Positions 2,406-29,330 of a DNA stretch of 32,000 bases are shown here, piece by piece (the stretch's first letter is position 1; every line of letters begins with the position of its first letter). Origin of the DNA: Okeania sp. (lineage in GTDB: Bacteria > Cyanobacteriota > Cyanobacteriia > Cyanobacteriales > Microcoleaceae); the NCBI RefSeq assembly GCF_035285525.1, contig NZ_JAYKGW010000165.1:29692-61691 (forward strand), in the 5' to 3' direction. Under the pieces are notes generated by a model, which ran no database searches, had not been told where the DNA came from, and worked only from the letters and a program-made list of their open reading frames with translations. A program made the translations under genes and the position numbers.

Positions 2406-2435
2406 CATAATAATTAATCCTAGAAAGAAAATAAA

Positions 2436-3515
2436 ATGAGAAGAACAATTAATTTTCAAAATATTTCCTGGTTTTGGGACTTATATCAAAGACAACTTCT
2501 TGATTTAGAGCCATCATACCAAAGACGTAGTGTTTGGAATCAAAACTATAAAGATGACTTTATTGATACAGTATTACATCAATATCCAGCACCTGCAATT
2601 TTTATATATCAAGAAATTACTCCTGAAGGATTTTCCAAAGTGAGTGTAGTTGATGGAAAACAAAGATTATCTACCCTATTTCAATTTGTTAATAATGAAT
2701 TTCCTGTATATGAAAAAACTAAAATTCAACGCTTTATCGGTAAATATTTTAAAGATTTAGAAACTGAAGATAAACAAGAATTTTGGAGGTATCAATTTGC
2801 CATTGAATATTTACCATCATCTAACGAAAACATTATTGGTGATATCTTTAATCGTATTAATCGTAATGTAATTAAATTAACTCCTCAAGAGCTTCGTCAT
2901 GCAAGATTTAGTGGTGATTTTATTACTCTTGCAGAGGAATTATCTACTTGGATGTTTAAGCATTTTGGAAAAAACAGTAAAAACTTTCCTAACCTTAATT
3001 CAACTTCCAGAAAACAGATGAAAGATGTTGAAATTGTAGCACAACTACTATTATTTTTAGAAGAGGGAGCAAAGTCTTATAGTGCTGATTATCTTGATAA
3101 AGCTTTTACTGAACGAGATAGTGAATGGGAAGAAAAAGATGAAATAGAAGATGAATTTCGGGAAACTATTAAATCTATAAGCAAAATATTAAATTTATCA
3201 AGAGATATTAATCTAACTAAAACTCGGTTAAAAAATCAGGCTGATTTTTACTCTCTATTTGGTGCTATTGCTGAGTTAAATCGCGAGAATATGCTAGAAA
3301 TAAATGAAGATGTTGGCTCAAAAATATCTGACTTTCTAAAAATTGTAGAAGATCAAGAATTACAAAATAAATCCAAACAAGAGTTAAAGGATTTTCAACA
3401 GAAAGCATTAGATTATTATAAAGCAGTAAAATCTTCTTTTACAGATGCTGGTCCTAGAAAAACTAGAATTGAAATTATTAAATCTTTATTGAAAGGGGAT
3501 ATTCATTTAGAATAA
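2436..3515 (+). CDS. DUF262 (ParB/Srx-like NTPase, GmrSD N-terminal type) domain protein lacking any fused DUF1524/HNH nuclease
   Basis: 359-aa ORF. Motifs: SYQRRSVWNQ, VVDGKQRLSTLFQF (DGxQR motif), IFNRINRNVIKLTPQELRHA. The C-terminal ~180 aa is acidic/helical with no His-Me finger motif. The downstream ORF starts 11 nt after the stop. Confidence 0.75.
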   Translation: MRRTINFQNISWFWDLYQRQLLDLEPSYQRRSVWNQNYKDDFIDTVLHQYPAPAIFIYQEITPEGFSKVSVVDGKQRLSTLFQFVNNEFPVYEKTKIQRFIGKYFKDLETEDKQEFWRYQFAIEYLPSSNENIIGDIFNRINRNVIKLTPQELRHARFSGDFITLAEELSTWMFKHFGKNSKNFPNLNSTSRKQMKDVEIVAQLLLFLEEGAKSYSADYLDKAFTERDSEWEEKDEIEDEFRETIKSISKILNLSRDINLTKTRLKNQADFYSLFGAIAELNRENMLEINEDVGSKISDFLKIVEDQELQNKSKQELKDFQQKALDYYKAVKSSFTDAGPRKTRIEIIKSLLKGDIHLE

Positions 3516-3526
3516 TTTTAAATATT

Positions 3527-4519
3527 ATGAGATATCCTGCTATTCTAGACCGTAAATATAATCAATATCAACCCTTTGTTGAAAAAGTAGCTAAACAAGT
3601 CAAAGAAACATTATTAAACTTTTGCGATACCAAAGGATATCCTTTTACCTCTCGAATTAAAACTATTGAATCTCTAGCTGAAAAAATTGAAACGGGAAGA
3701 TTTCAAAAATGGTCAGATTTAGATGACTTGTTTGCTTGTACAATTATTATCCCAACTCTATCTCACGAAAAAGAGGTGACAGAATTTTGTAAAAGTATAT
3801 TTAAAACTATCAAAACAACCAAAAGAGGACAGAATAAAAAATCTCCAGATACATTTAAGTTTGATTCAACTAGAATTTGTGCTCAACTTCAAAGTAATAA
3901 TGACATAATTCCAGAGAATAAATTAAGTATTTATCAAATTAAATTTGAAATTCAAATCAAAAGTGCTTTTGAACACGCTTGGTCTGTTGCAACTCACAAT
4001 CTTATCTATAAAAGTTCAGAAATTGATTGGAGAAAATTACGTTTAGCTGCACAAATAAAAGCAACGGTTGAACAATTAGATATGTTAATACTTGCTTTTG
4101 AAAAAACTTCCGAATTTATTGAAAATAATGATTACCTAGAAATCAAAAATAAACAATTTTTAGTCGCAGAAATAAATAAATTATTTCAAACTAAAAAAAT
4201 ACCTGATGAGCTTAAGCCAAAAGATATGAGTCGTTTTTGTGATAACTTATATCGTCTGTTAATTAATGTAGTTGAAGAACAACAAATTCAAGAAAAAGTT
4301 AAAGCAGTAATCCAGAAAATTCAATCAACAAAAACAAATCAAATTCCACTCAGTATTTCATTATTTCAATATTTTATTAGCATTTTGATATCTGAGAAAA
4401 TAATGATTGATTCTTCTATAAATAGATATTATTGGCATATTACCCAAGAAGTTATAACTTTGTATCCAGAACTAAATAATATTAATTCTACTTTTGATTA
4501 TGAAGAAAATAAGTTTTAG
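3527..4519 (+). CDS. RelA/SpoT-fold nucleotidyltransferase (small-alarmone-synthetase / toxSAS-like) with an uncharacterised ~150-aa C-terminal domain
   Basis: 330-aa ORF. Motifs: SRIKTIESLAEKIETGR (ATP-binding R/K helix), DLDDLFACTIIIP (Asp strand), FEIQIKSAFEHAWSVATHNLIYK (equivalent to ExQxRT...H...YK). The acceptor motif GYxSxH is replaced by KFDSTRICAQL. Confidence 0.7.
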   Translation: MRYPAILDRKYNQYQPFVEKVAKQVKETLLNFCDTKGYPFTSRIKTIESLAEKIETGRFQKWSDLDDLFACTIIIPTLSHEKEVTEFCKSIFKTIKTTKRGQNKKSPDTFKFDSTRICAQLQSNNDIIPENKLSIYQIKFEIQIKSAFEHAWSVATHNLIYKSSEIDWRKLRLAAQIKATVEQLDMLILAFEKTSEFIENNDYLEIKNKQFLVAEINKLFQTKKIPDELKPKDMSRFCDNLYRLLINVVEEQQIQEKVKAVIQKIQSTKTNQIPLSISLFQYFISILISEKIMIDSSINRYYWHITQEVITLYPELNNINSTFDYEENKF

Positions 4520-4557
4520 TGTTTGGTTATAGTAATTTAATTTATTAGCTTATACTG

Positions 4558-4896
4558 TTAGTCTCCACTAATTTCAACCAATGATTCACCAGACTCTAGA
4601 ATTTCTAATGCTTCTAGTAAAGTAGCACTTAAAATTTTTCGGAACCGAGAATTTGAGGTATTACCACAGGTTAACCAGATAATTTGAGGTGGTGAGTCAA
4701 GGGGATTGACTAGATCGACAAAATCACTATCTTTAGTTATCAAGATAACGTTTTGAGCTTTTTCTGCTTCAAAAATCTCAAAGTCTTCAGCATCTCTCAA
4801 ACCAATATCCCGTACAGCTAATGCTGTTATTCCAAAAGTTTCCCTAATCCAAGTCGCGATCGCAGGCGACAGTTGTGCATGTATCCAAATTATCAT
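4558..4896 (-). CDS. DUF5615 (Mut7-C/PIN-like) protein, putative toxin partner of DUF433
   Basis: 112-aa ORF with RDIGLRDAEDFEIFEAEKAQNVILITKDSDFVDLV, typical of DUF5615. It overlaps the upstream DUF433 ORF by 4 nt (ATGA) and contains a HIP1 site at 4856-4863. Confidence 0.7.
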   Translation of the reverse strand: MIIWIHAQLSPAIATWIRETFGITALAVRDIGLRDAEDFEIFEAEKAQNVILITKDSDFVDLVNPLDSPPQIIWLTCGNTSNSRFRKILSATLLEALEILESGESLVEISGD

Positions 4897-5117
4897 ACAA
4901 CTAGCACAGGATGATTAAGTTTACGGGAAGCATATAAAAGCGCTGCTTGCAAATCATTGGCCTCTAGATCTGGCATTTCTTCCCAGATTTGTTCGGCACT
5001 CAGTCCAGCAGCAAATAAATCTAGTACATCTGATACCCTAATTCTCAAACCTCGGATACAAAGGCAGCCACTACATTGTTTAGGGTTAATCGTAATTCTT
5101 TTGAGTAATTCTGACAT
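4893..5117 (-). CDS. DUF433 family protein (antitoxin-like, HTH)
   Basis: 74-aa ORF: ITINPKQCSGCLCIRGLRIRVSDVLDLFAAGLSAEQIWEEMPDLEANDLQAALLYA matches the DUF433 pattern (DP..C.G.P.IRGTRI.V..VL......G.S.EEI...YP.L...DI.AAL.YA). Confidence 0.75.
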   Translation of the reverse strand: MSELLKRITINPKQCSGCLCIRGLRIRVSDVLDLFAAGLSAEQIWEEMPDLEANDLQAALLYASRKLNHPVLVV

Positions 5118-5235
5118 ATAGTTTTACTCCAGAACGAATTTTTATGTCGCTACAGTTGTCAAGGATTTCTATTTTATGAAAATTCTAACACTTTTTTGTT
5201 GATTACCTATTCCCTGTTCCCTCTCTTTAGAAAAA

Positions 5236-6006
5236 TTAATTATACATCTTGTTAAATACCTCTTCCCTGTTCCCTTTCTCAACAAAGAAACCAACCTTAC
5301 CTCCATAAGCACGATACAAATTTTCTTCCTGCAATACAACTTGCCGATCGCCAACAGCAAGTAACTCCTTATTTAACAGAATTAAATCATCAAAATTAGT
5401 AATAGATTCCCCCAAATCATGGTTAACAACAACCACAATTTTTCCAACTTCAGCTAACTCGTGAAAAATGTCAAAAAGAATATTTTCAGTCTTCTGATCT
5501 ACCCCAACAAACGGCTCATCAAAACAAAAAATATCTGCTTCCTGAGCTAAAGCTCGCGCTAAAAAAACTCGTTGCTGTTGACCGCCAGAAAGTTGACCGA
5601 TAGAGCGATCGCGATAACCATCCATTCCTACCCTGATTAACGCCTCAAATGCTATCCGGCGACTCATACTAGAAAAACGACGAAACCAACCAGTTTTGCG
5701 CACTCGCCCCATCATTACCACATCCCAGACAGTCGCAGGATATGTCCAATCAATTTGCGATCGCTGAGGTACATAAGCAACTTTTTCTAACTGTTCCGGA
5801 AGTGGTTTCTCATTATAGGTTACAGAACCGTTACTCAGAGCAATTAATCCTAGCATTCCTTTTAATAAGGTACTTTTTCCTGCGCCATTAGGGCCAATAA
5901 TACCTGTTAACCTTCCTGCCTGTATCTGTAGAGTAATATTTCGCAATGCCTCAACCGTGCGATAATAAACTCCTAAATGACTAACTGTAATTTTGGCTTG
6001 ATTCAT
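5236..6006 (-). CDS. Metal (Mn/Zn-class, MntA/ZnuC-like) ABC transporter ATP-binding protein
   Basis: Walker A GPNGAGKSTLLKG, signature LSGGQQQRVFLARAL, Walker B IFCFDEPF, H-loop VVNHD. Its size and its divergent pairing with a TroA-family SBP fit this class. The last ~12 codons run through heptamer-repeat remnants (5261-5274). Confidence 0.85.
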   Translation of the reverse strand: MNQAKITVSHLGVYYRTVEALRNITLQIQAGRLTGIIGPNGAGKSTLLKGMLGLIALSNGSVTYNEKPLPEQLEKVAYVPQRSQIDWTYPATVWDVVMMGRVRKTGWFRRFSSMSRRIAFEALIRVGMDGYRDRSIGQLSGGQQQRVFLARALAQEADIFCFDEPFVGVDQKTENILFDIFHELAEVGKIVVVVNHDLGESITNFDDLILLNKELLAVGDRQVVLQEENLYRAYGGKVGFFVEKGNREEVFNKMYN

Positions 6007-6147: not shown

Positions 6148-7170
6148 ATGAAAAAATTACCAATTACTTCTTCCGATTCCCTGTTCCCGATTCCCTGTTC
6201 CCGATTCCCGATTCCCTGTTCCCTATTCCCTATTTTATTAGGATTATTAATTAGTAGTTGTACGGCTCCATCTGCAAATATTTCTCCTGAAAATGAGGAT
6301 AAACTTTTAGTAGTTTCCACAAGTACCATCATTGCCGATATGACAGAAAAAATAGGTGGGGATGAAATTGAGCATCAGGGAATTTTGGAACCGGGAGCAG
6401 ATCCTCATATTTATGAACCTGTACCTGCTGATAGTGTGGCTTTTGAGAAAGCAAATTTAATTTTTTATAATGGGTATCATTTAGAACCTGGTTTAATTAA
6501 ACTTATTAATTCTGCGGGTATGAAAGCGCAAAAGTTAGCAGTAGCAGAAAAAGTGACACCGTTACAAAGTCCGAAGGAGGGAGAGTTGGTGCCAGATCCC
6601 CACGTTTGGGGTGATGCAGAAAATGGAATTGTGATGGTGAATGCTATTCGGGATGCTTTGATTGAGTTATCACCGGAAGATAAAGAGGTGTTTATGGAGA
6701 ATGCTGCCAAATTAGTTGAGGAGTTACGACAGGTTGATATTTGGATTAGCAAACAAATTGCAACTATTCCAGAAAATCAGCGCCGACTGGTGACTACCCA
6801 TGATGCTTTTAAATATTATGTGAAAGCTTATGGTTTAGAAATGATGGGAACTTTGATTGGGATGAGTACGGAGGAACAACCTAGTGCGCAAACGGTGAAA
6901 AATTTAGCAGAGGAGATTAAGAAAACTAGGGTTCCTGCTATTTTTGCGGAGACTACTATTAATCCTCAGTTAATTACTACTGTTGCGGATGAAGCAGGGG
7001 TAAAGTTGGCAGCTAGGGAGTTGTATTCTGATTCTATTGGCGCTTCTGGGAGTGAAGGGGATAGTTATGTAAAAATGTTGATCTCTAATACTCAGGCAAT
7101 AGTGGAAGCTTTGGGTGGAGAGTATTCTGCTTTTGAGTTACAAACAAAATCGACTGCGGAGGGTAATTAA
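6148..7170 (+). CDS. Metal ABC transporter substrate-binding lipoprotein (TroA/PsaA/MntC/ZnuA family)
   Basis: 340-aa ORF with lipobox LLISS-C, and DPHIYEP, DPHVWGD and TTHDAFKYY motifs typical of cluster A-I metal SBPs. There is no long His-rich ZnuA loop. The N-terminal signal region contains the heptamer array. Confidence 0.85.
   Translation: MKKLPITSSDSLFPIPCSRFPIPCSLFPILLGLLISSCTAPSANISPENEDKLLVVSTSTIIADMTEKIGGDEIEHQGILEPGADPHIYEPVPADSVAFEKANLIFYNGYHLEPGLIKLINSAGMKAQKLAVAEKVTPLQSPKEGELVPDPHVWGDAENGIVMVNAIRDALIELSPEDKEVFMENAAKLVEELRQVDIWISKQIATIPENQRRLVTTHDAFKYYVKAYGLEMMGTLIGMSTEEQPSAQTVKNLAEEIKKTRVPAIFAETTINPQLITTVADEAGVKLAARELYSDSIGASGSEGDSYVKMLISNTQAIVEALGGEYSAFELQTKSTAEGN
6175..6230. 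repeat. STRR-type heptanucleotide tandem repeat, 8 units (GATTCCC/TGTTCCC/TATTCCC)
   Basis: Direct reading gives gattccc tgttccc gattccc tgttccc gattccc gattccc tgttccc tattccc, with degenerate flanks. Two-unit remnants of the same heptamers lie at 5208-5221 and 5261-5274. Confidence 0.9.
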
Positions 7171-7456: not shown

Positions 7457-10400
7457 CTAAGCAATTGGTATTTTAATAATAAATTCTGTTCCTTCATCCA
7501 CATTACTAACACAAATTAGCTCTCCAGAATGATGCTCAACGACAATTTCATAGCTAGTATACAATCCCAAACCAGTACCTGAACCTACTGGTTTAGTGGT
7601 AAAAAATGGGTCGAATATTTTATTAACAATTTCTGGTAAAATTCCCGGGCCGTTATCAGCAATTTTAATTTCAATGAATTGATTTTCAGTTATTGCTGTA
7701 GTAATTGTCATAATAGGAAGAAAATCAGATTTTTTTCTCTTAATACTAACTTCATTTAAAGCATCAATACCATTACTTATAATATTAAAAAATACTTGGT
7801 TTAACTGATTAGGATAACAAGTAACTAATGGTAATTTTCCATAATTTTTCATCACTTTGATTTCGGGATATTTGACTGCACAATCTCTCTCTGGAAAATT
7901 TTTCAACCGATGTTGTAAAATTAGCAAAGTAGATTCAATCCCTTCGTGGATATCTGCTTTTTTAATTTCCGATTCGTCTAAACGAGAAAAATTTCGCAAC
8001 GAAGTTACTATATCCCTAATCCGTTTTGAACCTGCTTCCATCGAATCTAATAACTTTTGCAAATCTTCTGCCAAAAAATCTAAATCTATATCTTCAATTA
8101 TTTCTTCAATTTCAGCCGTCGGTTTCGGATAGGTATCTTGATAAGCAGTAACTAAATCTAACAAGTCACCAACGTATAAACTTGCTGGTTGAAGATTGGC
8201 ATAAATAAAATTAATTGGGTTGTTAATTTCATGGGCAACACCTGCTACCATTTGACCTAAAGAAGACATTTTTTCACTGTGAATTAATTGGGCTTGGGTT
8301 TTTTGTAAATTTGTCAATGCTTGCTCTAAATCAAAAGCTTTTTGACTCAGAGCTTGAGTTTTTTTCTCCACTTCTGCTTCTAAGGTTTGAGAATAGTTTT
8401 CTACTTGTTGATACAAGCGGGCATTTTCAATTGAAATGGCAGCTTGTGAAGTTAAAATTTGTAATGTTTCAATCCGAGCGCTGGTAAATGCTCCCACTGT
8501 GAGATTATTTTCTAAATACAAAATAGCAATTAATTTTCCTTGCTTGGTAATAGGAGTGCATAAAACTGATTTTGGTTGCTTGCTAATGATGTAGCGATCG
8601 CCTGCAAATTCAGGTATTGCACTCAAGTTATCAAAAACTGTGATTCTTTTATTTCTAGCAACGGAATAAATTAAGCTTTGAGGTAATTCTTGACATTGAG
8701 AAAGAGGGGTTTGCAAGTTTTCTATATGGTTTTGACTAGCCTTGGCCACAACTAACCATCCTGCTTCTTGATGAATCACTAAAAATCCTGTTTCTGCGCC
8801 TCCATTAGCGATCGCAACTTCCATGAGAGTGGCTAAAAGTTTCTCTAATTCTATTTCCTCGGAAATAGCTTGAGCTGCTGTCATCACTGCTGGAAAATCT
8901 AATAGATTGGAGTTTTGGCTGTTTGTAGTGTTCTTAATGCTTCTCCTGGCACTGGTAGAAATCGTTTCCTCAGAGCTACTTGCTAGCTTAGTTGCTTGCA
9001 GAATAACTTCTAGCAGTTGTGGATATTTTTCTTCTAAATAGACAATTTTTCCCTTCGCTCCCCACCTTGCATAACAGTAGTAGGCTTCTTGCATATATCC
9101 AGCAGCAACTTTTTCTTTTCCCCAATGCAGATAAAATTTAGCTGCTAGTTCATTTGCTAAGGCTTCTTCATGAATATATTCATTTTCTTTGGCTCCAACG
9201 ATTGCGCAATCATACCAATCTGCTGCTTCATAATTTTTGCCTAAAAGCCGACATTTTTCTGCTTCTAATAAATCAACTCTATGTTGATGATTCATGGGAG
9301 CATAATGCGCCCATTCCATCAGAGTAGTTTGATAAATTTGCACTTTTTCTAGAGTTTCAGTTTGCTCAATTTCACATTCTGTAGAGCAGATTGCCAAGTG
9401 AGTTAAGCCAGCATAAAAATTGAAAACTGCCATGTAAGTTGCTCCGGCAATGGTGGCTAAAAAACAATTAGCTTCGGCAATGTAATTTAGAGCATTAATA
9501 TAGTTGCTGAAAAAATAGGCAACCATCAGTTTACCGATATAAACAGCAGCTAATGCACTTAATTCACTATTCTGATGATGTTGAGGAATCATTACTGTTT
9601 CATCATAAGCACTTCCATTTAGGACATCCGGTTCCTCCATCGCGGTTCGTAAATTCTGCACCATCTGCTGTTTCATTTTGACAAAAACCAGAGAAGAATC
9701 TTGCTTCATTTGAGATAAAACCACACAGTAATGTTCGACTTCTGACTCCCAGTCATCCAGACAGACTCCAGCAAATAAACTACTATCTAAATAGTTATCA
9801 GCATTGTGTCCAGCACTGAAAAAATCACCTGTTTCCATTCCCACTAGATAACCCTCTTTCATCATAGGAATAGTGTTTCTCAAAGCTTCTCGACGATGGT
9901 TAATCAAAAAGCTACACAACAGTAAACTTAGAGACTTAAATTCCCTGCCATTGAGGCGATCGAGTAGACTCAATGTTAAACGACTAAAAGCATAACCTCT
10001 TTCTACCTCGCCAAAAGAAGCACACAGTAGCATCCCATAACTAGCATACCCAATAATTGATGCTGGTGTATTGCCAAATTCTAGGGATAAACTAACCATA
10101 ATGGAAGTCAGCACTGGCAGCAAAGCAAAATTCCCGATAAAAATCGGCAAAAATAACATTGCCAATAATTCCATCGTGGCGATTTTTTGTTTGTCACTCA
10201 TTAAAGGGAGGTTCGTTAGTTCTGAAACCTGACTATTTGAGATGCGCTCCGCCAGAATTTGTAGAGATTTATCGCCTAAGTCTTTGTCAGCTCCTGTAGG
10301 CAGTTCAACTCCTAATTGTAATAGAGCAATTCTACCGACAGCGATCGCTTCTAACATCTGACTTTGAGCTGCTAAAGCACTAATTTTAATCTCATAAATT

Positions 10401-13081
10401 TTGATTTTTTCTAGTATGGTTTGGGCAGATTCCAAAACTAAGGTAGCCATTTTTTCCATACCCTCAAAATCAGCATTTAAGTAGGCAGTTTCCGTCGCAG
10501 CTATATACAGATTTAGAGTTAATTCATATTGAGTTTGCCAACAATTTTCAGTCAGTAAATCCAGCCCTATTTGCACAAAATTTCTGGCTGCTGCATAAGC
10601 AGTTGAATTTCTAGCTTTTTGTGCAGTAGTTAAGTTAAGTTTCGCCAAATTTTCCCGTTCTATTGGTTCAGTAATTAACTCAATTGCTATATTAAAATGC
10701 CCGACAATATCAAATATTTTTTCTTCTTTTTCTGTCTCAGATAAATTTTGTTGTAGTAATTTTCCAATTTGCCAATGAGTTAACTGTTTTTGGTTTTCGG
10801 GAATTAGAAAATAACCAGCCTGTTGAACCCGATCATGTAAAAATCTATATCTAGCATTTTGTTGATGATAACTTTCTTTTTTAGAGCTAAAATTCTCATT
10901 TTCTTCAAGCTGATAAAACTTATAAACATCACTAACAGGTAAAATCAAACCCTCCTGCAATGCCTTCCACAATAAAATTGCTGTATCTGTTTCTGACTGT
11001 TGTGAAACTATTGCCAAAGTTTGTAAATCAAACCCAGAACCAATACAAGCTGCTAGTTTAATAATTTCCTGAGTTCCTGTTGGTAATTTCTGCAATTGTA
11101 ATGCCATAAATTCTACCACATCATCTGTAATTGCTAATACTTTAACTTGAGCAATATCACATTCCCAATGTTGAATATCCCAATTAAAGCGAATTAATTT
11201 ATCATCATATAATGCTTTGATAAACTGAGTCGCAAAGAAAGGATTTCCCTTAGTTTTTTGATAAACTAATTTTGTTAAAGGTTCAGCCAGAGACGATTCA
11301 CAATTTAGAGTATCTGCTACTAACTGATTCAGCTCGGACTCAATTAAAGGTAATAAAGTAATTGTATTTACTATTGACTCTATTTTTCTCAATTCATCTA
11401 AAGTTAAGATCAAGGGATGAACCGGGGAAACTTCATTATCTCGATAAGCACCTAATAATAATAAATATTTTGTCTCTGACACTAATAATTTCAGCAGATT
11501 TAATGAAGCAGAATCTGCCCATTGCAAGTCATCTAAAAATATGACTAAAGGATGTTCTTTTTGAGTGAAGACTTTCACAAATTTTTGAAATAATAAATTA
11601 AAGCGATTTTGGGAGGCTGTTCCTGATAATTCTATAGCTGGTGGTTGTTTACCAATAATATTTTCTAACTCAGGAATTACATCTATTAAAACTTGTCCGT
11701 TTTCACCCAATGCTGCCAGAATATTAGTTTTCCAAATTTCTATTTTTGCTTCTGATTCTGATAATAATTGCCCCATTAAATCTCGAAAAGCTTGCACAAA
11801 ACCAGAAAAAGGAACATTACGATTAAATTGGTCATATTTGCCTTTGATAAAAAAACCTTGCTGCCGAACAATAGGTTTATGAACTTCATTAATAACGGCA
11901 GTTTTTCCTATCCCTGAAAAACCTGCAACTAACATCAATTCTCCTCTTCCTCCCCCCTTACTAAGGGGGGTTTGGGGGGGATTACTAAGGGGGGTTTGGG
12001 GGGGATTACTAACGCGGGTTTGGGGGGGATTACTAAGGGGGGTTTGGGAAGGATTACTAACGCGGGTTTGGGGAGGATTACTAAGAGGGGTTTGGGAAGA
12101 ATTACTAACTCGTTCAAAAGCATCTAATAATTGATTAACTTCTATTTCCCGACCGTAGAGTTTTTCAGGAATCATAAATCTGTCACTAATATCTCGTTTC
12201 CCTATTTCAAAATCTGATATATTTCCTGTTTGTTGAAGTTGATTTAGACAGTTTTCTAAATCATGCTTAATTCCCAATGCACTCTGATAACGATTTTCGG
12301 CATTTTTTGCCATCAACTTATTAACTATATTTGACAAAATTGGAGGAATTTGTGAATTTATTTTATGGGTTTCTATAGGTTGTTTTGCTAAATGAAAATG
12401 CAATAATTCCATGGCGTTGTCGGAAACAAATGGTAATTTTCCTGTCAATAATTCATAGAAAGTGACACCCAAGGAATAAAAGTCGCTCCGATAGTCTATA
12501 CCTCGATTCATTCGACCTGTTTGTTCCGGAGAAATATAGGCTAATGTACCTTCTAAAATATTAGGATTCTGAATTTCTTGAGTTTCTCGTGGCAAGAGAG
12601 AGGCAATACTAAAGTCAATTAATTGAATTTGTTTAGTGTCAGGATTAATGAGAATATTAGCAGGTTTTATATCTTTATGAATGACTCGGTTTTGGTAGAG
12701 ATAGTGTAGAACTTCTGTGAGGGGGATAGCTATTTCCAGAAATTCTGTTAAAGATAAATATTTATATTGAGGATTTTTATCTGTGGTTATTTGGAGGTAA
12801 TTAGATAGAGAAATTCCACCTATGTCTTCCATAATTAAAGCATAGCCATTGTCATAAACTTCTAGACTTAAGAGTTTGCTAATATTAGGAAAGTCCAGAT
12901 TTTGAGCAATAGTATATTGGTTGCGAAATTGGACAATTTCGTTAAAGTTTGGGTATTTGTTTCTGAGTAGTTTAATCACAACAGGTTGTTCGTCGCTGTT
13001 ACGAATACCCCGATAAACTAGAGTGCGAGTACCTGCGTACAGTTGCTCTGTGATTTGATAATTAGGTAAGTTAGGAATCAT
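7457..13081 (-). CDS. Multidomain sensor: Ser/Thr protein kinase - AAA/STAND ATPase - TPR-like helical region - GAF - histidine kinase (cyanobacterial dual-kinase type)
   Basis: 1874-aa ORF. N-terminal STK motifs: VIHKDIKPANILI, DFSIA, GTLAYISPEQ. P-loop LMLVAGFSGIGKTAV and Walker B VIFLDDLQWAD. GAF: CTPITKQGKLIAILYLEN. H-box VAHEINNPINFI. N/G boxes: NIISNGIDAL, DNGPGI, GSGTGLGL. Confidence 0.9.
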   Translation of the reverse strand: MIPNLPNYQITEQLYAGTRTLVYRGIRNSDEQPVVIKLLRNKYPNFNEIVQFRNQYTIAQNLDFPNISKLLSLEVYDNGYALIMEDIGGISLSNYLQITTDKNPQYKYLSLTEFLEIAIPLTEVLHYLYQNRVIHKDIKPANILINPDTKQIQLIDFSIASLLPRETQEIQNPNILEGTLAYISPEQTGRMNRGIDYRSDFYSLGVTFYELLTGKLPFVSDNAMELLHFHLAKQPIETHKINSQIPPILSNIVNKLMAKNAENRYQSALGIKHDLENCLNQLQQTGNISDFEIGKRDISDRFMIPEKLYGREIEVNQLLDAFERVSNSSQTPLSNPPQTRVSNPSQTPLSNPPQTRVSNPPQTPLSNPPQTPLSKGGGRGELMLVAGFSGIGKTAVINEVHKPIVRQQGFFIKGKYDQFNRNVPFSGFVQAFRDLMGQLLSESEAKIEIWKTNILAALGENGQVLIDVIPELENIIGKQPPAIELSGTASQNRFNLLFQKFVKVFTQKEHPLVIFLDDLQWADSASLNLLKLLVSETKYLLLLGAYRDNEVSPVHPLILTLDELRKIESIVNTITLLPLIESELNQLVADTLNCESSLAEPLTKLVYQKTKGNPFFATQFIKALYDDKLIRFNWDIQHWECDIAQVKVLAITDDVVEFMALQLQKLPTGTQEIIKLAACIGSGFDLQTLAIVSQQSETDTAILLWKALQEGLILPVSDVYKFYQLEENENFSSKKESYHQQNARYRFLHDRVQQAGYFLIPENQKQLTHWQIGKLLQQNLSETEKEEKIFDIVGHFNIAIELITEPIERENLAKLNLTTAQKARNSTAYAAARNFVQIGLDLLTENCWQTQYELTLNLYIAATETAYLNADFEGMEKMATLVLESAQTILEKIKIYEIKISALAAQSQMLEAIAVGRIALLQLGVELPTGADKDLGDKSLQILAERISNSQVSELTNLPLMSDKQKIATMELLAMLFLPIFIGNFALLPVLTSIMVSLSLEFGNTPASIIGYASYGMLLCASFGEVERGYAFSRLTLSLLDRLNGREFKSLSLLLCSFLINHRREALRNTIPMMKEGYLVGMETGDFFSAGHNADNYLDSSLFAGVCLDDWESEVEHYCVVLSQMKQDSSLVFVKMKQQMVQNLRTAMEEPDVLNGSAYDETVMIPQHHQNSELSALAAVYIGKLMVAYFFSNYINALNYIAEANCFLATIAGATYMAVFNFYAGLTHLAICSTECEIEQTETLEKVQIYQTTLMEWAHYAPMNHQHRVDLLEAEKCRLLGKNYEAADWYDCAIVGAKENEYIHEEALANELAAKFYLHWGKEKVAAGYMQEAYYCYARWGAKGKIVYLEEKYPQLLEVILQATKLASSSEETISTSARRSIKNTTNSQNSNLLDFPAVMTAAQAISEEIELEKLLATLMEVAIANGGAETGFLVIHQEAGWLVVAKASQNHIENLQTPLSQCQELPQSLIYSVARNKRITVFDNLSAIPEFAGDRYIISKQPKSVLCTPITKQGKLIAILYLENNLTVGAFTSARIETLQILTSQAAISIENARLYQQVENYSQTLEAEVEKKTQALSQKAFDLEQALTNLQKTQAQLIHSEKMSSLGQMVAGVAHEINNPINFIYANLQPASLYVGDLLDLVTAYQDTYPKPTAEIEEIIEDIDLDFLAEDLQKLLDSMEAGSKRIRDIVTSLRNFSRLDESEIKKADIHEGIESTLLILQHRLKNFPERDCAVKYPEIKVMKNYGKLPLVTCYPNQLNQVFFNIISNGIDALNEVSIKRKKSDFLPIMTITTAITENQFIEIKIADNGPGILPEIVNKIFDPFFTTKPVGSGTGLGLYTSYEIVVEHHSGELICVSNVDEGTEFIIKIPIA
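11958..12109. repeat. In-frame 24-nt tandem repeat, 6 full units plus a partial one, encoding SNP(P/S)QT(PL/RV) octapeptides inside the kinase gene
   Basis: Plus-strand units TTACTAA(G/C)G(G/C)GGGTTTGGG(G/A)(G/A)GGA lie at 11958, 11982, 12006, 12030, 12054 and 12078. The protein reads VSNSSQTPLSNPPQTRVSNPSQTPLSNPPQTRVSNPPQTPLSNPPQTPL. Confidence 0.9.
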
Positions 13082-25329: not shown

Positions 25330-25749
25330 ATGTCAGCTAGAGATATTTATCATAATACAGTTGTTGAAGCCTTAAAAACAGATGGTTGGAAAATTACTAA
25401 CGATCCTCTATATTTAGGTTATGGAGGTAAACATCTTTATGTTGATTTGGGTGCAGAAAAAACAGCGATCGCTGCGGAAAAAAACGGACAAAAAATTGCT
25501 GTAGAAATCAAAAGTTTTATTAGTCTTTCTCCCATAAATGATTTACAAATAGCAGTAGGGCAATATGAAATTTATCGAAGTGTATTATCGGAACTGGAAT
25601 CAGAACGTTTACTTGATCTTGCTGTTAATCTAAAAGCTTATGAAAATATTTTCCAAGAGAAACTAGGTCAGTTAATTATTAATAAAATACAACTGCATCT
25701 GATAATTTTTGATGAAAAAATTAGGAGAATAATTAAATGGATAAGTTAG
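25330..25749 (+). CDS. xisH: XisH family protein (fdxN-element excision controlling factor-like; endonuclease-like fold)
   Basis: 139-aa ORF: MSARDIYHNTVVEALKTDGWKITNDPLYLGYGGKHLYVDLGAEKTAIAAEKNGQKIAVEIKSF matches the XisH family closely. Confidence 0.85.
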   Translation: MSARDIYHNTVVEALKTDGWKITNDPLYLGYGGKHLYVDLGAEKTAIAAEKNGQKIAVEIKSFISLSPINDLQIAVGQYEIYRSVLSELESERLLDLAVNLKAYENIFQEKLGQLIINKIQLHLIIFDEKIRRIIKWIS

Positions 25750-26072
25750 ATAACTATCGTGAAATTATTAAGAAAATAATATACGAATATGGCACTCATA
25801 AACCTGCTAATGGTCAAATAGATGTGGAAATTGTAATTGACACTGAACGAGACCATTATGAAGTAATTCATGTGGGTTGGGATGGTGTACGTCGAGTTTG
25901 TGGTTCAGTGGTTCATATTGATATTATTAATGATAAAATCTGGATTCAATATGATGGTTGTTCTCAACCTGTTGCTGAAGAACTTTTGGAAGCAGGCATA
26001 ACCAAAGATATGATAGTTTTGGCTTTTCATCCAGAAGAAGTGCGTGAGTATACAGGTTTTGCAGTTTCTTAA
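25737..26072 (+). CDS. xisI: XisI family protein
   Basis: 111-aa ORF overlapping xisH by 13 nt. YREIIKKIIYEYG...DTERDHYEVIHVGWDGVRRVCGSVVHIDIINDKIWIQYDG...ELLEAGI.KDMIVLAFHP is the typical XisI signature. Confidence 0.85.
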   Translation: MDKLDNYREIIKKIIYEYGTHKPANGQIDVEIVIDTERDHYEVIHVGWDGVRRVCGSVVHIDIINDKIWIQYDGCSQPVAEELLEAGITKDMIVLAFHPEEVREYTGFAVS

Positions 26073-26547: not shown

Positions 26548-27450
26548 TTGACACTAATGTTAGAAACATTACTAGAACCATTACAATATAATTTTATGCA
26601 GCGCTCGCTCCTAATAGCAATAATAATTGGAATTATTTGTGCAGTAGTTGGCAGTTACTTAATTGTACAAAGATTAGCTTTATTAGGAGATGCTATTAGT
26701 CACTCAGTCTTACCAGGATTAGCTGTGGCTTTTTGGATAGGAATAAATATATTTATCGGAGCATTTATTGCCGGAATAATTAGCACTATTTTAATCAATC
26801 TAATTAGGACGCGATCGCCAATCAAAGAAGATGCAGCAATGGGGATAGTTTTTTCTGCTTTCTTTGCTTTAGGAATCACATTAATTACAATTATTCAAAA
26901 AGACAATAAAATTGACCTCAATCATTTTTTATTCGGCAATATTCTAGGGGTAACTATTGGAGACGTCAGAGATACATTAATTATTGGTACAATAGTTTTA
27001 TTCGTAGTATTTCTACTCTATAAAGAATTATTATTTTACACATTTGACCCCCTTGGCGCTCAAGCAGTAGGATTACCTGTAAATTTATTAAATTTGGGTT
27101 TAATGGTGTTAATTGGTTTAACAATTGTAGCGAGTCTCAAAGCAGTAGGAGTAGTCTTAGTTTTATCCTTATTAATTACACCAGCATCTACAGCTTATCT
27201 ATTAGTTCAAAGACTCCACCAAGTAATGATATTAGGAGTAGGAATAGGAATTTTATCTAGTATTAGTGGAATGTATATTAGCTACTTTTATAATTTGCCT
27301 TCTGGTCCTGCCATTGTATTAGTATCATTCGGCTTATTTATATTAGCTTTTTTGTTCAGTCCTACTCAGGGGATTTTGACTCATCCTGCATCAATTTCTA
27401 GTCAACCTTTTATTTGGCGGGAGTTAAAAAATTTAATCAAATTAAATTGA
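26548..27450 (+). CDS. Metal ABC transporter permease (ABC-3 family, MntB/ZnuB-like); start is TTG 26548 or ATG 26557
   Basis: 300-aa polytopic ORF: LLEPLQYNFMQRSLLIAIIIGIICAVVGSYLIVQRLALLGDAISHSVLPG and NHFLFGNILGV are hallmarks of ABC-3 permeases. No SBP or ATPase gene lies next to it. Confidence 0.85.
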   Translation: MTLMLETLLEPLQYNFMQRSLLIAIIIGIICAVVGSYLIVQRLALLGDAISHSVLPGLAVAFWIGINIFIGAFIAGIISTILINLIRTRSPIKEDAAMGIVFSAFFALGITLITIIQKDNKIDLNHFLFGNILGVTIGDVRDTLIIGTIVLFVVFLLYKELLFYTFDPLGAQAVGLPVNLLNLGLMVLIGLTIVASLKAVGVVLVLSLLITPASTAYLLVQRLHQVMILGVGIGILSSISGMYISYFYNLPSGPAIVLVSFGLFILAFLFSPTQGILTHPASISSQPFIWRELKNLIKLN

Positions 27451-27467: not shown

Positions 27468-27623
27468 TTAGCAAAAAGTGCAATAATAATGTTTATATTT
27501 AGGGAGGAGAGAATAGTTAAGAATCAAGAATAATAAAGTTATAATCTCCTGGAAAACTCTACCTTCAGGATGTCTTACTAAATCTGATAGAGTGTTAGTA
27601 TTAAGAAGGTATTGATAATTCAT
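27468..27623 (-). pseudogene. Truncated PIN-domain (VapC-like) toxin remnant
   Basis: 51-codon ORF MNYQYLLNTNTLSDLVRHPEGRVFQEI... resembles the VapC/FitB N-terminus (LLDTNVLSELxRxxPxxxV) with the first catalytic Asp changed to Asn. The sequence then degenerates and stops. The start overlaps the extended vapB frame. Confidence 0.35.
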
Positions 27624-27675
27624 TTATATCAGGAAAATCATCTGTTATGTCTGACAATGTAGTTAGTAAGGAAAC

Positions 27676-27834
27676 TCAGGAATTAGAAGGAATAGGTTCA
27701 ATTATTAAGCGATCGCCTTCTTTGCCTAATAAAACTTCAGTACCTGGCAAAGCAAATTCATGGGGAATGGTTATGACTTGATTTTTACCAATTATTTGTA
27801 GAGAAACATAATGTGAGTTTTGCATGAGTATCAT
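27676..27834 (-). CDS. AbrB/SpoVT (MazE/VapB-type) antitoxin-like protein, probably truncated by an in-frame TGA
   Basis: From ATG 27834 the protein reads MILMQNSHYVSLQIIGKNQVITIPHEFALPGTEVLLGKEGDRLIIEPIPSNS, a swapped-hairpin AbrB-type DNA-binding pattern. The frame past the TGA continues VSLLTTLSDITDDFPDINELSIPS to a TAA at 27601-27603, which resembles VapB C-terminal tails. Confidence 0.5.
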   Translation of the reverse strand: MILMQNSHYVSLQIIGKNQVITIPHEFALPGTEVLLGKEGDRLIIEPIPSNS

Positions 27835-28650
27835 TCCTATTCTTTGAAGTTTCAGAACAGTGTTATAATACACTATTTTTAGATATAAATACCAAAAATT
27901 TGACACTTTTCTCAAATCATCCTTACTTCTTATTATGTGAATATCCTCATATTTAAAATACAATAAATATTAAAAATATTCCCTAAATTATAATTTACTA
28001 ATGGTGTTATTCTTTATTGGATAATCTGACAAATCTTTTCTTTTTCATAGTTCATTTCAAGAAGTAGAAATAAGTTTATATTAGTTATAGCTCAGTTATG
28101 GAAAGTTTGCCATTTTTGCTAAATAAAACCAATAAAAATTTTACTTTTTAAAGAGCAGATGGAGAACTCCCAGTTTCAATTCTACGAGCAAACTTCCAAA
28201 TATCTGCCACCTTTTGTATGTATTCATCAACTTGTTGTTTTAGGATTTGAAGATTTGATAGACAGAATTATCACTCCAATTTCCCATATATTCATAAACG
28301 AAAGAGGTGAAACAAATTTACTCATCACACAATAAATTTTAACTATATTAATCATATTATTAGCTACTCGAAAGCTGCTTAATTATTGATTTTATATCAG
28401 TTGTGGTAAATATTCTGAAAGTCTTCTTGATGCCTAGATTTTGAATGCTTATAGTCTATTAATAATTCAGATAGTTCTTTTTCTATAAATTTTCCATTTC
28501 TATAAATTTTCCATTGCAGCAAAAGATATTCAAAAAAGACTTTCAGTCAAACTAAAGCAGCAAAAATTAACCTTCTTCTTTCTTCCTTCTTTCCTCTTAC
28601 TTTTTGCTTCTGTACGCGATAAAACTACGTTTCGCTTTGCGATCACACTC

Positions 28651-29201
28651 CTACTTACTAATTCTCTTTTTCATTTTATCAAGCACCTGCGCAGAGCTAA
28701 AAACTTACTTCCAAAATACACGAAAATCTATTTCTTTGCAACCACCCTACATTTCTTACATATCAAGACTTTTAACCAATAGCTAATGAAAACGGGATTT
28801 CACCAAAACTCCCCCATTGTTCACCCTAAATATCTCATTTCAACTTTTTTGACGAAATACTGTTTAAATTCCTAATCTATTTATAAAAAAAATATAATAT
28901 TAACTTATACTCTACGAGGATAAACCCTACTTACTAATTCTCTTTTTCATTTTATAAAGCACCTGCGCAGAGCGAATAACTTACCTCCAAAATACACGAA
29001 AATTTCTTTCTTTGCAACCACCCTGTATTTCTTACATATCAATACTTTTAACCAATGAGTAATGAAAACGGGATTTCACCAAAACTACCCCATTTTTGCC
29101 TCAAAATATCTCATTTCAACTTTTTTTGCGAAATTAAGTTTAAATTCATAATCTATTTGGTAAAATTAATAATATTAACTTATACTCTACGAGGATAAAC
29201 C
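28651..29201. repeat. Tandem direct repeat, 2 units of ~276 nt (28651-28926 and 28927-29201), ~90 percent identical by eye
   Basis: Both units start ctacttactaattctctttttcatttta and end ttaacttatactctacgaggataaacc. Shared internal blocks are gcacctgcgcagagc, ctttgcaaccaccct and aatgaaaacgggatttcaccaaaact. A second ~62-nt repeat (28535-28600 and 29219-29280) flanks the pair. Confidence 0.85.
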
Positions 29202-29330
29202 CTAAAAACTCTACAGGTAAAGACTTTTAGTGAAACTAAGAGCAGCAAAAATCAATCTTCTTCCCTCTTCGCTTCTTATCTGGCTAAAATATAAGACTAC
29301 ATAAAATATCTATTCTAAAATCAAAAAAAA

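Follow-up and report, generated by a model that had tools for sequence, protein, structure and literature searches.

We analysed a stretch of 32,000 nucleotides from Okeania sp., a filamentous marine cyanobacterium (contig NZ_JAYKGW010000165.1, positions 29,692 to 61,691). The whole stretch is called the window here, and the positions below are counted within it. Two open reading frames (ORFs), A and B, follow each other on its forward strand. A carries a DUF262 domain and B is a divergent protein of the RelA/SpoT fold. Both are 100% identical to RefSeq proteins of Okeania sp. An earlier note on this DNA had proposed them as an operon of an undescribed defence or toxin–antitoxin system. Its coordinates, the 11-nt gap, the shared direction and all peptides it quoted from the two ORFs were confirmed in the sequence. 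The unit consists of the following features:

2436..3515, + strand: ORF A, 359 aa, ATG start (ORF list; RefSeq WP_324237591.1, 'DUF262 domain-containing protein')
3516..3526, + strand: spacer of 11 nt between the stop of A and the start of B, the operon junction (read from sequence)
3527..4519, + strand: ORF B, 330 aa, ATG start (ORF list; RefSeq WP_324237592.1, 'hypothetical protein')
2420..4520, + strand: low-GC islet of two genes, the conserved and horizontally moving unit (GC content and limits of blastn homology)

A scan of the B-family alignment against one genome per GTDB species gave 70 loci, and A lies directly upstream of B on the same strand in 69 of them. In the reciprocal test, the A-family alignment was run against metagenome contigs. 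Among the 65 loci with enough downstream sequence, B lies directly downstream of A in 64, even where A has only ~37% identity to A of the window. The lone exception, locus L103, is a deletion of B, with no alternative partner. The synteny, which the earlier note had named as a test, thus holds in both directions and across at least 10 bacterial phyla, and this reciprocity rules out a chance pair of ORFs. The 70 loci come from many cyanobacteria and from Alpha- and Gammaproteobacteria, Planctomycetota, Acidobacteriota, Nitrospira, Verrucomicrobiota, Bacillota/Selenomonadales and Bipolaricaulota. In filamentous cyanobacteria the pair is widespread at 58–88% identity. When the neighbouring ORFs of the 70 loci were clustered, only A and B were conserved; the next cluster is present in at most 10 loci, all of them from closely related genomes. 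The junction between the genes ranges from a 4-nt overlap to a gap of ~30 nt in the 51 intact pairs. Over 1,275 pairwise comparisons the divergence of A correlates with that of B (r = 0.946), the rate of evolution in B being ~1.2 times that in A. A and B are obligate partners and form a real and robustly conserved two-gene module.

The module moves between genomes. GC content of the core is below that of the flanks in 54 of 55 loci (median −12 points), for example 0.34 in the core and 0.61 outside it in a Selenomonadales genome, and 0.45 and 0.71 in Belnapia. The islet of the window has 0.25–0.29 against 0.36–0.43 in its flanks. The blastn homology between the window and nearly all 70 loci starts at ~2420–2442 and ends at ~4470–4517, which corresponds to the two coding sequences. 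About 14 of the 70 copies (~20%) are decayed through internal deletions, frameshifts or insertion sequences (IS). Many orphan C-terminal fragments of B that have lost the catalytic half were found in a search with this domain, and copies that keep A without the catalytic half of B outnumber the reverse case. A disrupted A next to an intact B is found in locus L042, which holds two IS elements, and also in L015 and L054. In L042 (3200–6987, a metagenome-assembled genome of Alphaproteobacteria) a transposase of the ISXO2/IS1595 type truncates the DUF262 domain of A, and an IS3-family element (orfA and orfB, 4779–5932) lies between the remnant of A and B. B of this locus is a full-length ORF of 330 aa with all catalytic residues present.

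Distant relatives with 27–34% identity keep the A–B pair on conjugative Rhizobium plasmids. One of these pairs adjoins an N-6 DNA methylase; the other adjoins a BsuBI/PstI restriction enzyme, and its B is interrupted by IS5. Genes that recur near the pair include type I and type II restriction–modification (R-M) systems, Dnd/Ssp, methylases of the DISARM type (DrmMII) and the Druantia type (DruM), AbiEi, reverse transcriptase, the CRISPR-associated transposon CAST V-K and transposases. The earlier note had put forward proximity to defence genes as a further test. Defence genes recur among the neighbours listed here, but most of the cyanobacterial copies lie among housekeeping genes. The association with defence genes is real but patchy. 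Foreign GC content, homology that ends at the gene borders, decay, and the plasmid and R-M contexts are together typical of an accessory, horizontally mobile module rather than of a core regulator.

Protein A and protein B

The features of A are as follows:

2481..2909, + strand: DUF262 (ParB/Srx-like) NTPase domain, residues 16–158 (Pfam envelope)
2652..2666, + strand: DGKQR motif, D73–R77, counterpart of DGQQR (read from sequence)
2931..3512, + strand: acidic all-helical C-terminal domain, residues 166–359 (model and charge)

Residues 16–158 of A match GmrSD_N/DUF262 (PF03235) in Pfam with an E-value of 1.7e-20 (74.4 bits, cut-off 33.2), and this is the sole significant Pfam match of the protein. 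The peptides SYQRRSVW, VVDGKQRLSTLF and IFNRINRNVIKLTPQELRHA are present in A. Three motifs, QRRSxW (residues 29–34), DGKQR (73–77) and QELRHA (151–156), are invariant in all 51 intact homologues. DGQQR is the motif for hydrolysis of nucleoside triphosphates (NTPs) in GmrSD, BrxU and SspE (PMC10952713; bioRxiv 10.1101/2024.01.29.577857). Residues 72–77 of A read V-D-G-K-Q-R, with Lys in place of the middle Gln of (I/V)-D-G-Q-Q-R. No other part of the module is conserved as well as the DUF262 domain, which keeps 59% identity across phyla. For DUF1524 or HNH there is no Pfam match in A at E<=1, and no nuclease or other effector domain is recognisable. The C-terminal half has a net charge of −6 in the window protein (median −7 in the family), and its helices have a predicted local distance difference test (pLDDT) of ~80 in the AlphaFold model. 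The assignment of A as a DUF262 protein with an acidic helical C-terminal half and without a DUF1524/HNH motif is thus borne out. Among the PADLOC models, A matches best to NsnA (2.2e-40, residues 16–353) and then to PD-T4-2_A (1.4e-19). Its PHROG match is phrog_2598 (8e-42).

The features of B are as follows:

3527..4021, + strand: synthetase (toxSYNTH-like) domain, residues 1–165 (AlphaFold pLDDT mostly 80–93; Foldseek)
3653..3685, + strand: ATP-donor motif R43-x-K45-xxx-S49-xxx-K53 (invariant in 51/51)
3725..3742, + strand: D67-L-F-A-C-T72, motif of the catalytic Mg2+ Asp (conservation and alignment)
3854..3874, + strand: remodelled acceptor 'G-loop' F110-K-F112-D-S-T-R116 (conservation and alignment)
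3947..4012, + strand: catalytic Glu motif E141-I-Q-I-K...H157...Y161-K162 (invariant in 51/51)
4022..4516, + strand: helical C-terminal domain, residues 166–330 (model helices H168–312)

Residues 42–164 of B match RelA_SpoT (PF04607) with an E-value of 4.3e-10 (40.3 bits, cut-off 27). The peptides SRIKTIESLAEKI, DLDDLFACTIII, FEIQIKSAFEHAWSVATHNLIYK and KFDSTRICAQL are present. In the AlphaFold model of B (mean pLDDT 76) the N-terminal domain is alpha/beta and the C-terminal domain all-helical. With residues 1–165, Foldseek retrieves small alarmone synthetases (SAS), the best being RelQ/SAS1 (5dec, E 5e-6), followed by CapRel (7ztb), RelP and Tas1, and the probability for RelQ, RelP, CapRel and Tas1 is 1.00. 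The Pfam match and the fold thus agree with the RelA/SpoT core that had been read from the sequence. The earlier note had proposed AlphaFold and Foldseek for the two C-terminal domains; the model of A gave only noise in Foldseek. Sequence and profile searches of Protein Data Bank (PDB) chains with A and B gave no relevant match, including no solved SAS, which we attribute to the divergence of both families.

Many residues of the synthetase domain of B are invariant in the 51 intact homologues, including R43, K45, S49, K53, D67, E141, Q143, H157, Y161 and K162, and likewise F148, A151 and W152. They include every residue that characterised enzymes use to hold the ATP donor or to catalyse the transfer. 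The catalytic Asp (D67) and Glu (E141), for which a structural alignment had been suggested as a check, are among them. In FaRel2 the residues R64, K66, S70 and K74 grip the triphosphate of ATP, and their spacing is that of R43, K45, S49 and K53 of B; together with D90 of FaRel2, which corresponds to D67, all five have their counterparts (PMC11782079). The acceptor side is different. In pairwise alignments with two canonical SAS-like proteins, F-K-F-D-S-T-R of B aligns to F-G-Y-x-S-x-H, with F112 opposite the G-loop Tyr. In addition, D-L-F-A-C-T aligns to D-I-x-G-x-R (DIVGIR and DILGLR in the canonical proteins), with Gly and Arg replaced by Ala and Thr. The divergence of the acceptor motif is therefore stronger than first claimed, as DLFACT for DIxGxR adds to KFDSTR for GYxSxH. 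F110, F112 and R116 are invariant in the 51 homologues, A70 is found in 43, and T72 in 45, with Ser or Ala in the other members. The Rhizobium plasmid branch of B (~30% identity) keeps ACT, and its loop reads F-Q-F-D-D-L-R. The acceptor adenine of FaRel2 is held by Tyr128 and Arg95, and Y128F is a standard catalytically impaired mutant (PMC11782079). The acceptor loop of B is lined by new invariant basic residues, R100, K105, K/R111 and R116. This pattern of residues suggests a canonical donor site combined with a re-specified acceptor site in B. Since Phe112 and Thr72 replace the Tyr and Arg that hold the purine, and basic residues stand at 100, 105, 111 and 116, B may accept a novel substrate. 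Judged by its residues, a non-canonical substrate is a reasonable reading, with attenuated activity as the alternative.

The C-terminal domain of B was called unassigned, and residues 166–330 indeed have no Pfam or PHROG match. A profile search for other architectures with this domain alone returned, among the matches listed, only B-family proteins and fragments. It is near-neutral in the family (median net charge −2, pI 6.0) and is the least conserved part of the module, with 32% identity across phyla against 44% for the synthetase domain. It is a candidate docking or regulatory domain. CapRel aligns to full-length B with a template modelling (TM) score of only 0.32 in Foldseek. The B family comprises 277 clusters at 50% identity (E<1e-30), nearly all of 320–340 aa.

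The only PADLOC model matched by B is PDC-S33 (2e-7), where residues 14–155 align to model positions 40–177 of 349. Stand-alone SAS-like proteins match the same model with 6e-18 and 2e-15. Two stand-alone SAS-like genes were encountered in the course of the survey. One lies between a terminase and an HNH endonuclease in a phage-like element, 'plasmid 44' of Bacteroides finegoldii (L073, 2483–3556), and the other is the only cargo of the 3.5-kb ColE1-type Klebsiella plasmid pZZW20-3.5K (L074, 436–1572). Both encode proteins of 357–378 aa with the canonical G-Y-x-S-x-H, and both match PDC-S33.

Comparison with known systems

The earlier note had described DUF262 as a module fused to a nuclease effector. 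This holds for GmrSD, BrxU and SspE, but Menshen, Dazbog and PD-T4-2 use separate partners (PMC10952713, PMC12065111). The partners of DUF262 named so far are a fused DUF1524 nuclease (GmrSD, BrxU, SspE), an ABC-ATPase with an inPIN-nuclease (Menshen) and HEPN (PD-T4-2) (PMC10952713, PMC12065111). GmrSD, BrxU and SspE share with A the DUF262 NTPase with a D-G-x-Q-R motif, and in them it is a nucleotide-dependent switch that senses the modification state of DNA. They differ in the fused DUF1524 His-Me/HNH domain, whose place is taken here by a separate predicted pyrophosphotransferase.

Menshen is similar to A in the layout of NsnA, in which ParB-DUF262 is followed by a helical C-terminal domain (ParBDB). 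NsnA is a proposed DNA sensor that acts on separate partners (PMC12065111). Unlike the A–B pair, Menshen needs the ABC-ATPase NsnB with DUF3696 as a transducer and the inPIN-nuclease NsnC as an effector (PMC12065111). Neither NsnB nor NsnC has a match in B or in the window, and no such gene is conserved in the 70 loci. A genuine NsnA of Okeania scores 8e-111 with the NsnA model and aligns to A by BLASTP at 29% identity over the DUF262 domain only. The NsnA profile spans the C-terminal half of A, yet BLASTP to the true NsnA finds nothing there. Furthermore, the C-terminal half of the true NsnA has a net charge of +1, whereas that of A is acidic. Judged by these alignments and charges, A appears to be a subfamily distinct from NsnA. 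Both systems occur side by side in Okeania sp. SIO3I5 (L001, 4911–10664), where a complete Menshen system lies directly downstream of an A–B pair, so that two DUF262-based systems adjoin. B of this pair is split into two ORFs. NsnA of the Menshen locus is found at 7463–8584 (8e-111) and NsnB at 9378–10664 (6e-122), and an NsnC model match (7e-106) among the neighbouring ORFs probably belongs to the same locus.

PD-T4-2 and Dazbog are, like the A–B pair, two-gene defence systems with a stand-alone DUF262 protein. The partner in PD-T4-2 is HEPN (PF18735; PMC10952713). B has no match to PD-T4-2_B, as it matches only PDC-S33 and RelA_SpoT, and PD-T4-2 was rejected. Dazbog was rejected as well, because neither A nor B matches the DzbA or DzbB model at E<=1.

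On the side of B, the toxic SAS (toxSAS) enzymes FaRel, FaRel2, PhRel and CapRel, and also Tas1, have the same RelA/SpoT synthetase fold with the same donor and catalytic residues. They are also encoded in tightly coupled bicistronic operons, and B resembles CapRel in its size and in having a C-terminal extension. The acceptor-base contacts differ, with Tyr to Phe and Arg to Thr in B. Known controllers of toxSAS are small antitoxins, a fused pseudo-zinc-finger domain (pZFD) in CapRel and a secretion-system immunity protein (PMC7229694, PMC11782079). None of these is a DUF262 protein; the partner here is an NTPase of 359 aa and not a small antitoxin of the pZFD, Tis1-like or small alarmone hydrolase (SAH) kind.

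By analogy of layout, the closest working analogue of the pair appears to be PANGU type I (Pag1A/Pag1B), described in an April 2026 preprint as an abortive-infection type of system that is widely distributed and modular (bioRxiv 10.64898/2026.04.06.716658). In PANGU type I a YejK-like nucleoid-associated protein comes off the chromosome when this is degraded and then docks on the acidic C-terminal domain of the synthetase (bioRxiv 10.64898/2026.04.06.716658). An inert tetramer is thereby turned into an active complex that produces pppGpp, and neither gene is toxic alone (bioRxiv 10.64898/2026.04.06.716658). Both are bicistronic, with a sensor-type gene first and then a two-domain small alarmone synthetase; Pag1B is composed of an N-terminal toxSYNTH domain, a helical linker and a C-terminal partner-binding domain. 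The sensors differ: that of PANGU is YejK-like, and A is a DUF262/ParB-like NTPase without a Pfam match of the YejK type. Pag1B, compared with B by its description only, is a GRel-subfamily member that retains the G-loop Tyr (Y129) and whose C-terminal domain is an acidic DNA mimic, while B has Phe at this position and a near-neutral, family-specific C-terminal domain.

The pairing of A and B has no record in PADLOC-DB v2 or NCBIfam, and NCBIfam holds no family for either protein. The searchable literature contains no description of it, in line with the earlier note, which recognised no named system in the pair. None of the computational checks that the note had listed as able to refute its reading did so. 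The pair is thus an undescribed combination of two known domain families; systems of a sensor with a toxSAS and of DUF262 with an effector both already exist.

Function of the pair

Our preferred reading, to which we give a probability of about 0.45, is that the pair is a self-contained conflict module of two genes, most likely for abortive-infection defence against phages or mobile elements of another kind, in which A licenses a growth-arresting B. A would be the sensor and switch, with a ParB-like DUF262 domain that binds and hydrolyses NTP. Its trigger would be a signal in nucleic acid, for instance DNA that is foreign, modified or damaged, as in its relatives in GmrSD, BrxU, SspE and Menshen. 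Triggered A would then engage B, probably via the fast-evolving C-terminal domains of both proteins, and license the synthetase domain. B is predicted to take pyrophosphate from ATP via its canonical donor site and to transfer it to the 3'-OH of an acceptor in the remodelled pocket. Growth arrest may follow from a toxic alarmone, from a drain of ATP or from modification of nucleic-acid 3' ends. We infer the defence role, the toxicity of B, activation rather than neutralisation by A, the trigger and the acceptor from the features described above.

Several observations point in this direction. Among them are the obligate pairing, the co-evolution, the horizontal mobility and the recurrence of defence and mobile-element genes near the pair. 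With their invariant motifs, A and B both appear capable of enzymatic activity. Conservation is higher in A (59% across phyla for its DUF262 domain) than in B (44% for its synthetase domain), and the motifs of A do not vary, which fits a sensor enzyme better than a disposable antitoxin. The C-terminal domains are the least conserved parts of the two proteins, as expected of a co-evolving interface. Copies with A destroyed and B intact exist, a loss that a B with constitutive toxicity should not permit. PANGU type I provides a precedent by analogy, as there a DNA-binding sensor activates an otherwise inert two-domain toxSAS, which would support licensing.

A number of points weigh against this reading. 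Most cyanobacterial copies are flanked by housekeeping genes and do not lie in defence islands. Searches of 2.9 million viral contigs and of 50,697 phage records turned up no copy of the pair. In the cases with A damaged and B intact, the genome is metagenome-assembled or B is separated from its promoter, which makes them weak evidence. The fold of A is poorly modelled by AlphaFold, with a mean pLDDT of 59.8 and values below 50 in the DUF262 domain. The acidity of its C-terminal half is a poor fit to the binding of DNA proposed for the homologous domain of NsnA, a role that may not carry over to A. As the G-loop Tyr is Phe in every B, B could, judged by this residue, be a weak enzyme. A DNA-mimic C-terminal domain of the PANGU kind was rejected for B on account of its near-neutral charge, and the docking mechanism is not directly transferable.

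A more specific proposal is that the DUF262-linked clade of B is a new class of RelA/SpoT homologue (RSH) with an acceptor that no known RSH uses, for example the 3'-OH at an end or a nick of DNA that A, as a partner able to bind DNA and NTP, would present to it. Pyrophosphorylation of such 3' ends would in that case block phage replication or repair, and B would be an RSH directed at DNA and not at nucleotides or tRNA. Nothing positively favours DNA over another non-canonical acceptor, and we regard this proposal as a long shot.

Among the rival explanations, a toxin–antitoxin module has the best standing, although we consider it unlikely. B would be a constitutively toxic SAS and A a large antitoxin, which either binds B (type II) or hydrolyses its product (type IV-like), and phage defence would arise from the loss of A. 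All bicistronic SAS operons validated earlier are toxin–antitoxin pairs (PMC7229694), and the pattern is matched here by the putative antitoxin gene in first position, the tight coupling and the overlap of stop and start codons. Copies on conjugative plasmids and the more frequent loss of the catalytic half of B with A kept would fit as well. Alarmone hydrolysis by A is chemically plausible, since the DUF262 pocket of its relatives hydrolyses NTPs (PMC10952713). However, antitoxins usually evolve faster than toxins, and here A is the more conserved protein with invariant NTPase motifs. With 359 aa, A far exceeds the known toxSAS antitoxins in size, and loci with A disrupted and B intact exist. 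The bicistronic toxSAS of PANGU, moreover, proved not to be a toxin–antitoxin system (bioRxiv 10.64898/2026.04.06.716658).

Distinctly improbable is housekeeping or regulatory nucleotide signalling, in which B would make an alarmone-like messenger upon a DNA or nucleotide signal read by A, for instance under stress, during problems of replication or when filamentous cyanobacteria differentiate. Such a role would be in keeping with the wide presence of the pair in filamentous cyanobacteria, mostly among housekeeping genes, with the absence of viral copies from the databases searched and with the strong purifying selection on A and B. The exchange of Tyr for Phe could also mean a low, non-toxic activity (PMC11782079). 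Against these stand the patchy distribution over at least 10 phyla, a GC content that departs from the host's in 54 of 55 loci and homology that stops at the gene borders, and also the ~20% of copies that are decayed or interrupted by IS and the copies on plasmids or beside R-M genes.

Very improbable, too, is that B is an attenuated or dead RelA/SpoT fold that serves as an adaptor or nucleotide-binding regulator, with A as the effector through NTP depletion or DNA clamping. The acceptor-base contacts Tyr128 and Arg95 of FaRel2 are replaced by Phe and Thr throughout the family (PMC11782079), and A is the most conserved component. A pseudoenzyme, however, would not need R43, K45, S49, K53, D67, E141 and Q143, which are invariant across phyla. 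The invariant basic residues R/K111, R116, R100 and K105 suggest an acceptor pocket that is re-specified and not lost, and no nuclease or effector domain is recognisable in A by Pfam. Finally, a degenerate or minimal Menshen, with A as an NsnA without NsnB and NsnC and B as an unrelated neighbour, was rejected as having next to no chance: NsnA is the best PADLOC match of A (2.2e-40) at nearly full length, but NsnB and NsnC are absent, Okeania sp. SIO3I5 carries both systems separately and B is an obligate partner.

Should the pair prove to be a system for defence or a toxin system, it would add a new class of effector for DUF262 sensors, whose known partners to date are HNH nucleases, an ABC-ATPase with a nuclease, and HEPN. 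It would equally add a new class of sensor for toxSAS, so far controlled by small antitoxins, a fused pZFD or YejK-like nucleoid proteins, and would support the free recombination of sensors and effectors in bacterial immunity. It would also be a compact handle on what stand-alone DUF262 sensors such as those of Menshen, Dazbog and PD-T4-2 detect and how this is relayed, and its predicted output, ATP-dependent pyrophosphoryl transfer, is easily assayed. Throughout the family the acceptor site is remodelled and the donor site left as it is, a natural experiment on the substrate specificity of RSH enzymes that could uncover a new alarmone or a macromolecular target not known before. Members of the family abound in cyanobacteria that form blooms or filaments (Okeania, Trichodesmium, Dolichospermum, Microcoleus, Nostoc), in which anti-phage systems have barely been explored experimentally.

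Surroundings of the pair in the window

Next to the pair, the window has ORFs for a P-type ATPase, for a pair of DUF5615 and DUF433 proteins and for a Mn/Zn ABC transporter. Scanning the window for Rfam families and tRNAs gave no match, and the islet has no tRNA or integrase as an anchor. A scan for promoters and terminators near the operon found nothing above the shuffled expectation. Upstream of A, the intergenic region 1317–2436 (1.1 kb) is dense in short dispersed repeats that are MITE-like (miniature inverted-repeat transposable element) in appearance. It contains the hairpin GGGAGCATCTTGCTCCC at 1337 with an inverted copy at 1824, a 70-nt repeat at 1737 and 1997 with the perfect palindrome AAAACTATTGTACAATAGTTTT at 1752 and 2012, and many copies of the motif CAGGACTTAC.

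Downstream, genes for a DUF5615 protein (PIN-like, 112 aa) and a DUF433 protein (74 aa) with overlapping stop and start codons lie at 4558–5117 on the − strand. This toxin–antitoxin-like module faces ORF B in convergent orientation, with only 38 nt between it and the stop codon of B. The Mn/Zn ABC transporter is split. Its ATPase (5236–6006, −) and a ZnuA-like binding protein (6148–7170, +) lie beside A–B, and an ABC-3 permease is found 20 kb away at 26548–27450, adjoining XisH (25330–25749) and a small ORF (25737–26072). In other Okeania genomes (L001, L005) the A–B pair abuts this XisH/permease block, so that the module of the window lies at a breakpoint of a rearrangement of ~20 kb.

Further repeats occur in the window. 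A 7/21-nt tandem repeat of ATTCCCT at 6176–6234, at the 5' end of the ZnuA-like gene, encodes peptide repeats of the 'SLFPIP' type, and related copies are present at 5196–5286. The region 27500–32000 (~4.5 kb) has no ORF longer than 95 aa and no Rfam family or tRNA, and holds a 276-bp tandem duplication (28650–29204) with copies that are 89% identical. A long ORF at 7457–13081 (−, 1874 aa) resembles a Ser/Thr protein kinase at its start and a histidine kinase at its end, as judged by eye, and within it 24/48-nt tandem units at 11958–12109 encode SNPPQTPL/SNPSQTRV peptide repeats.

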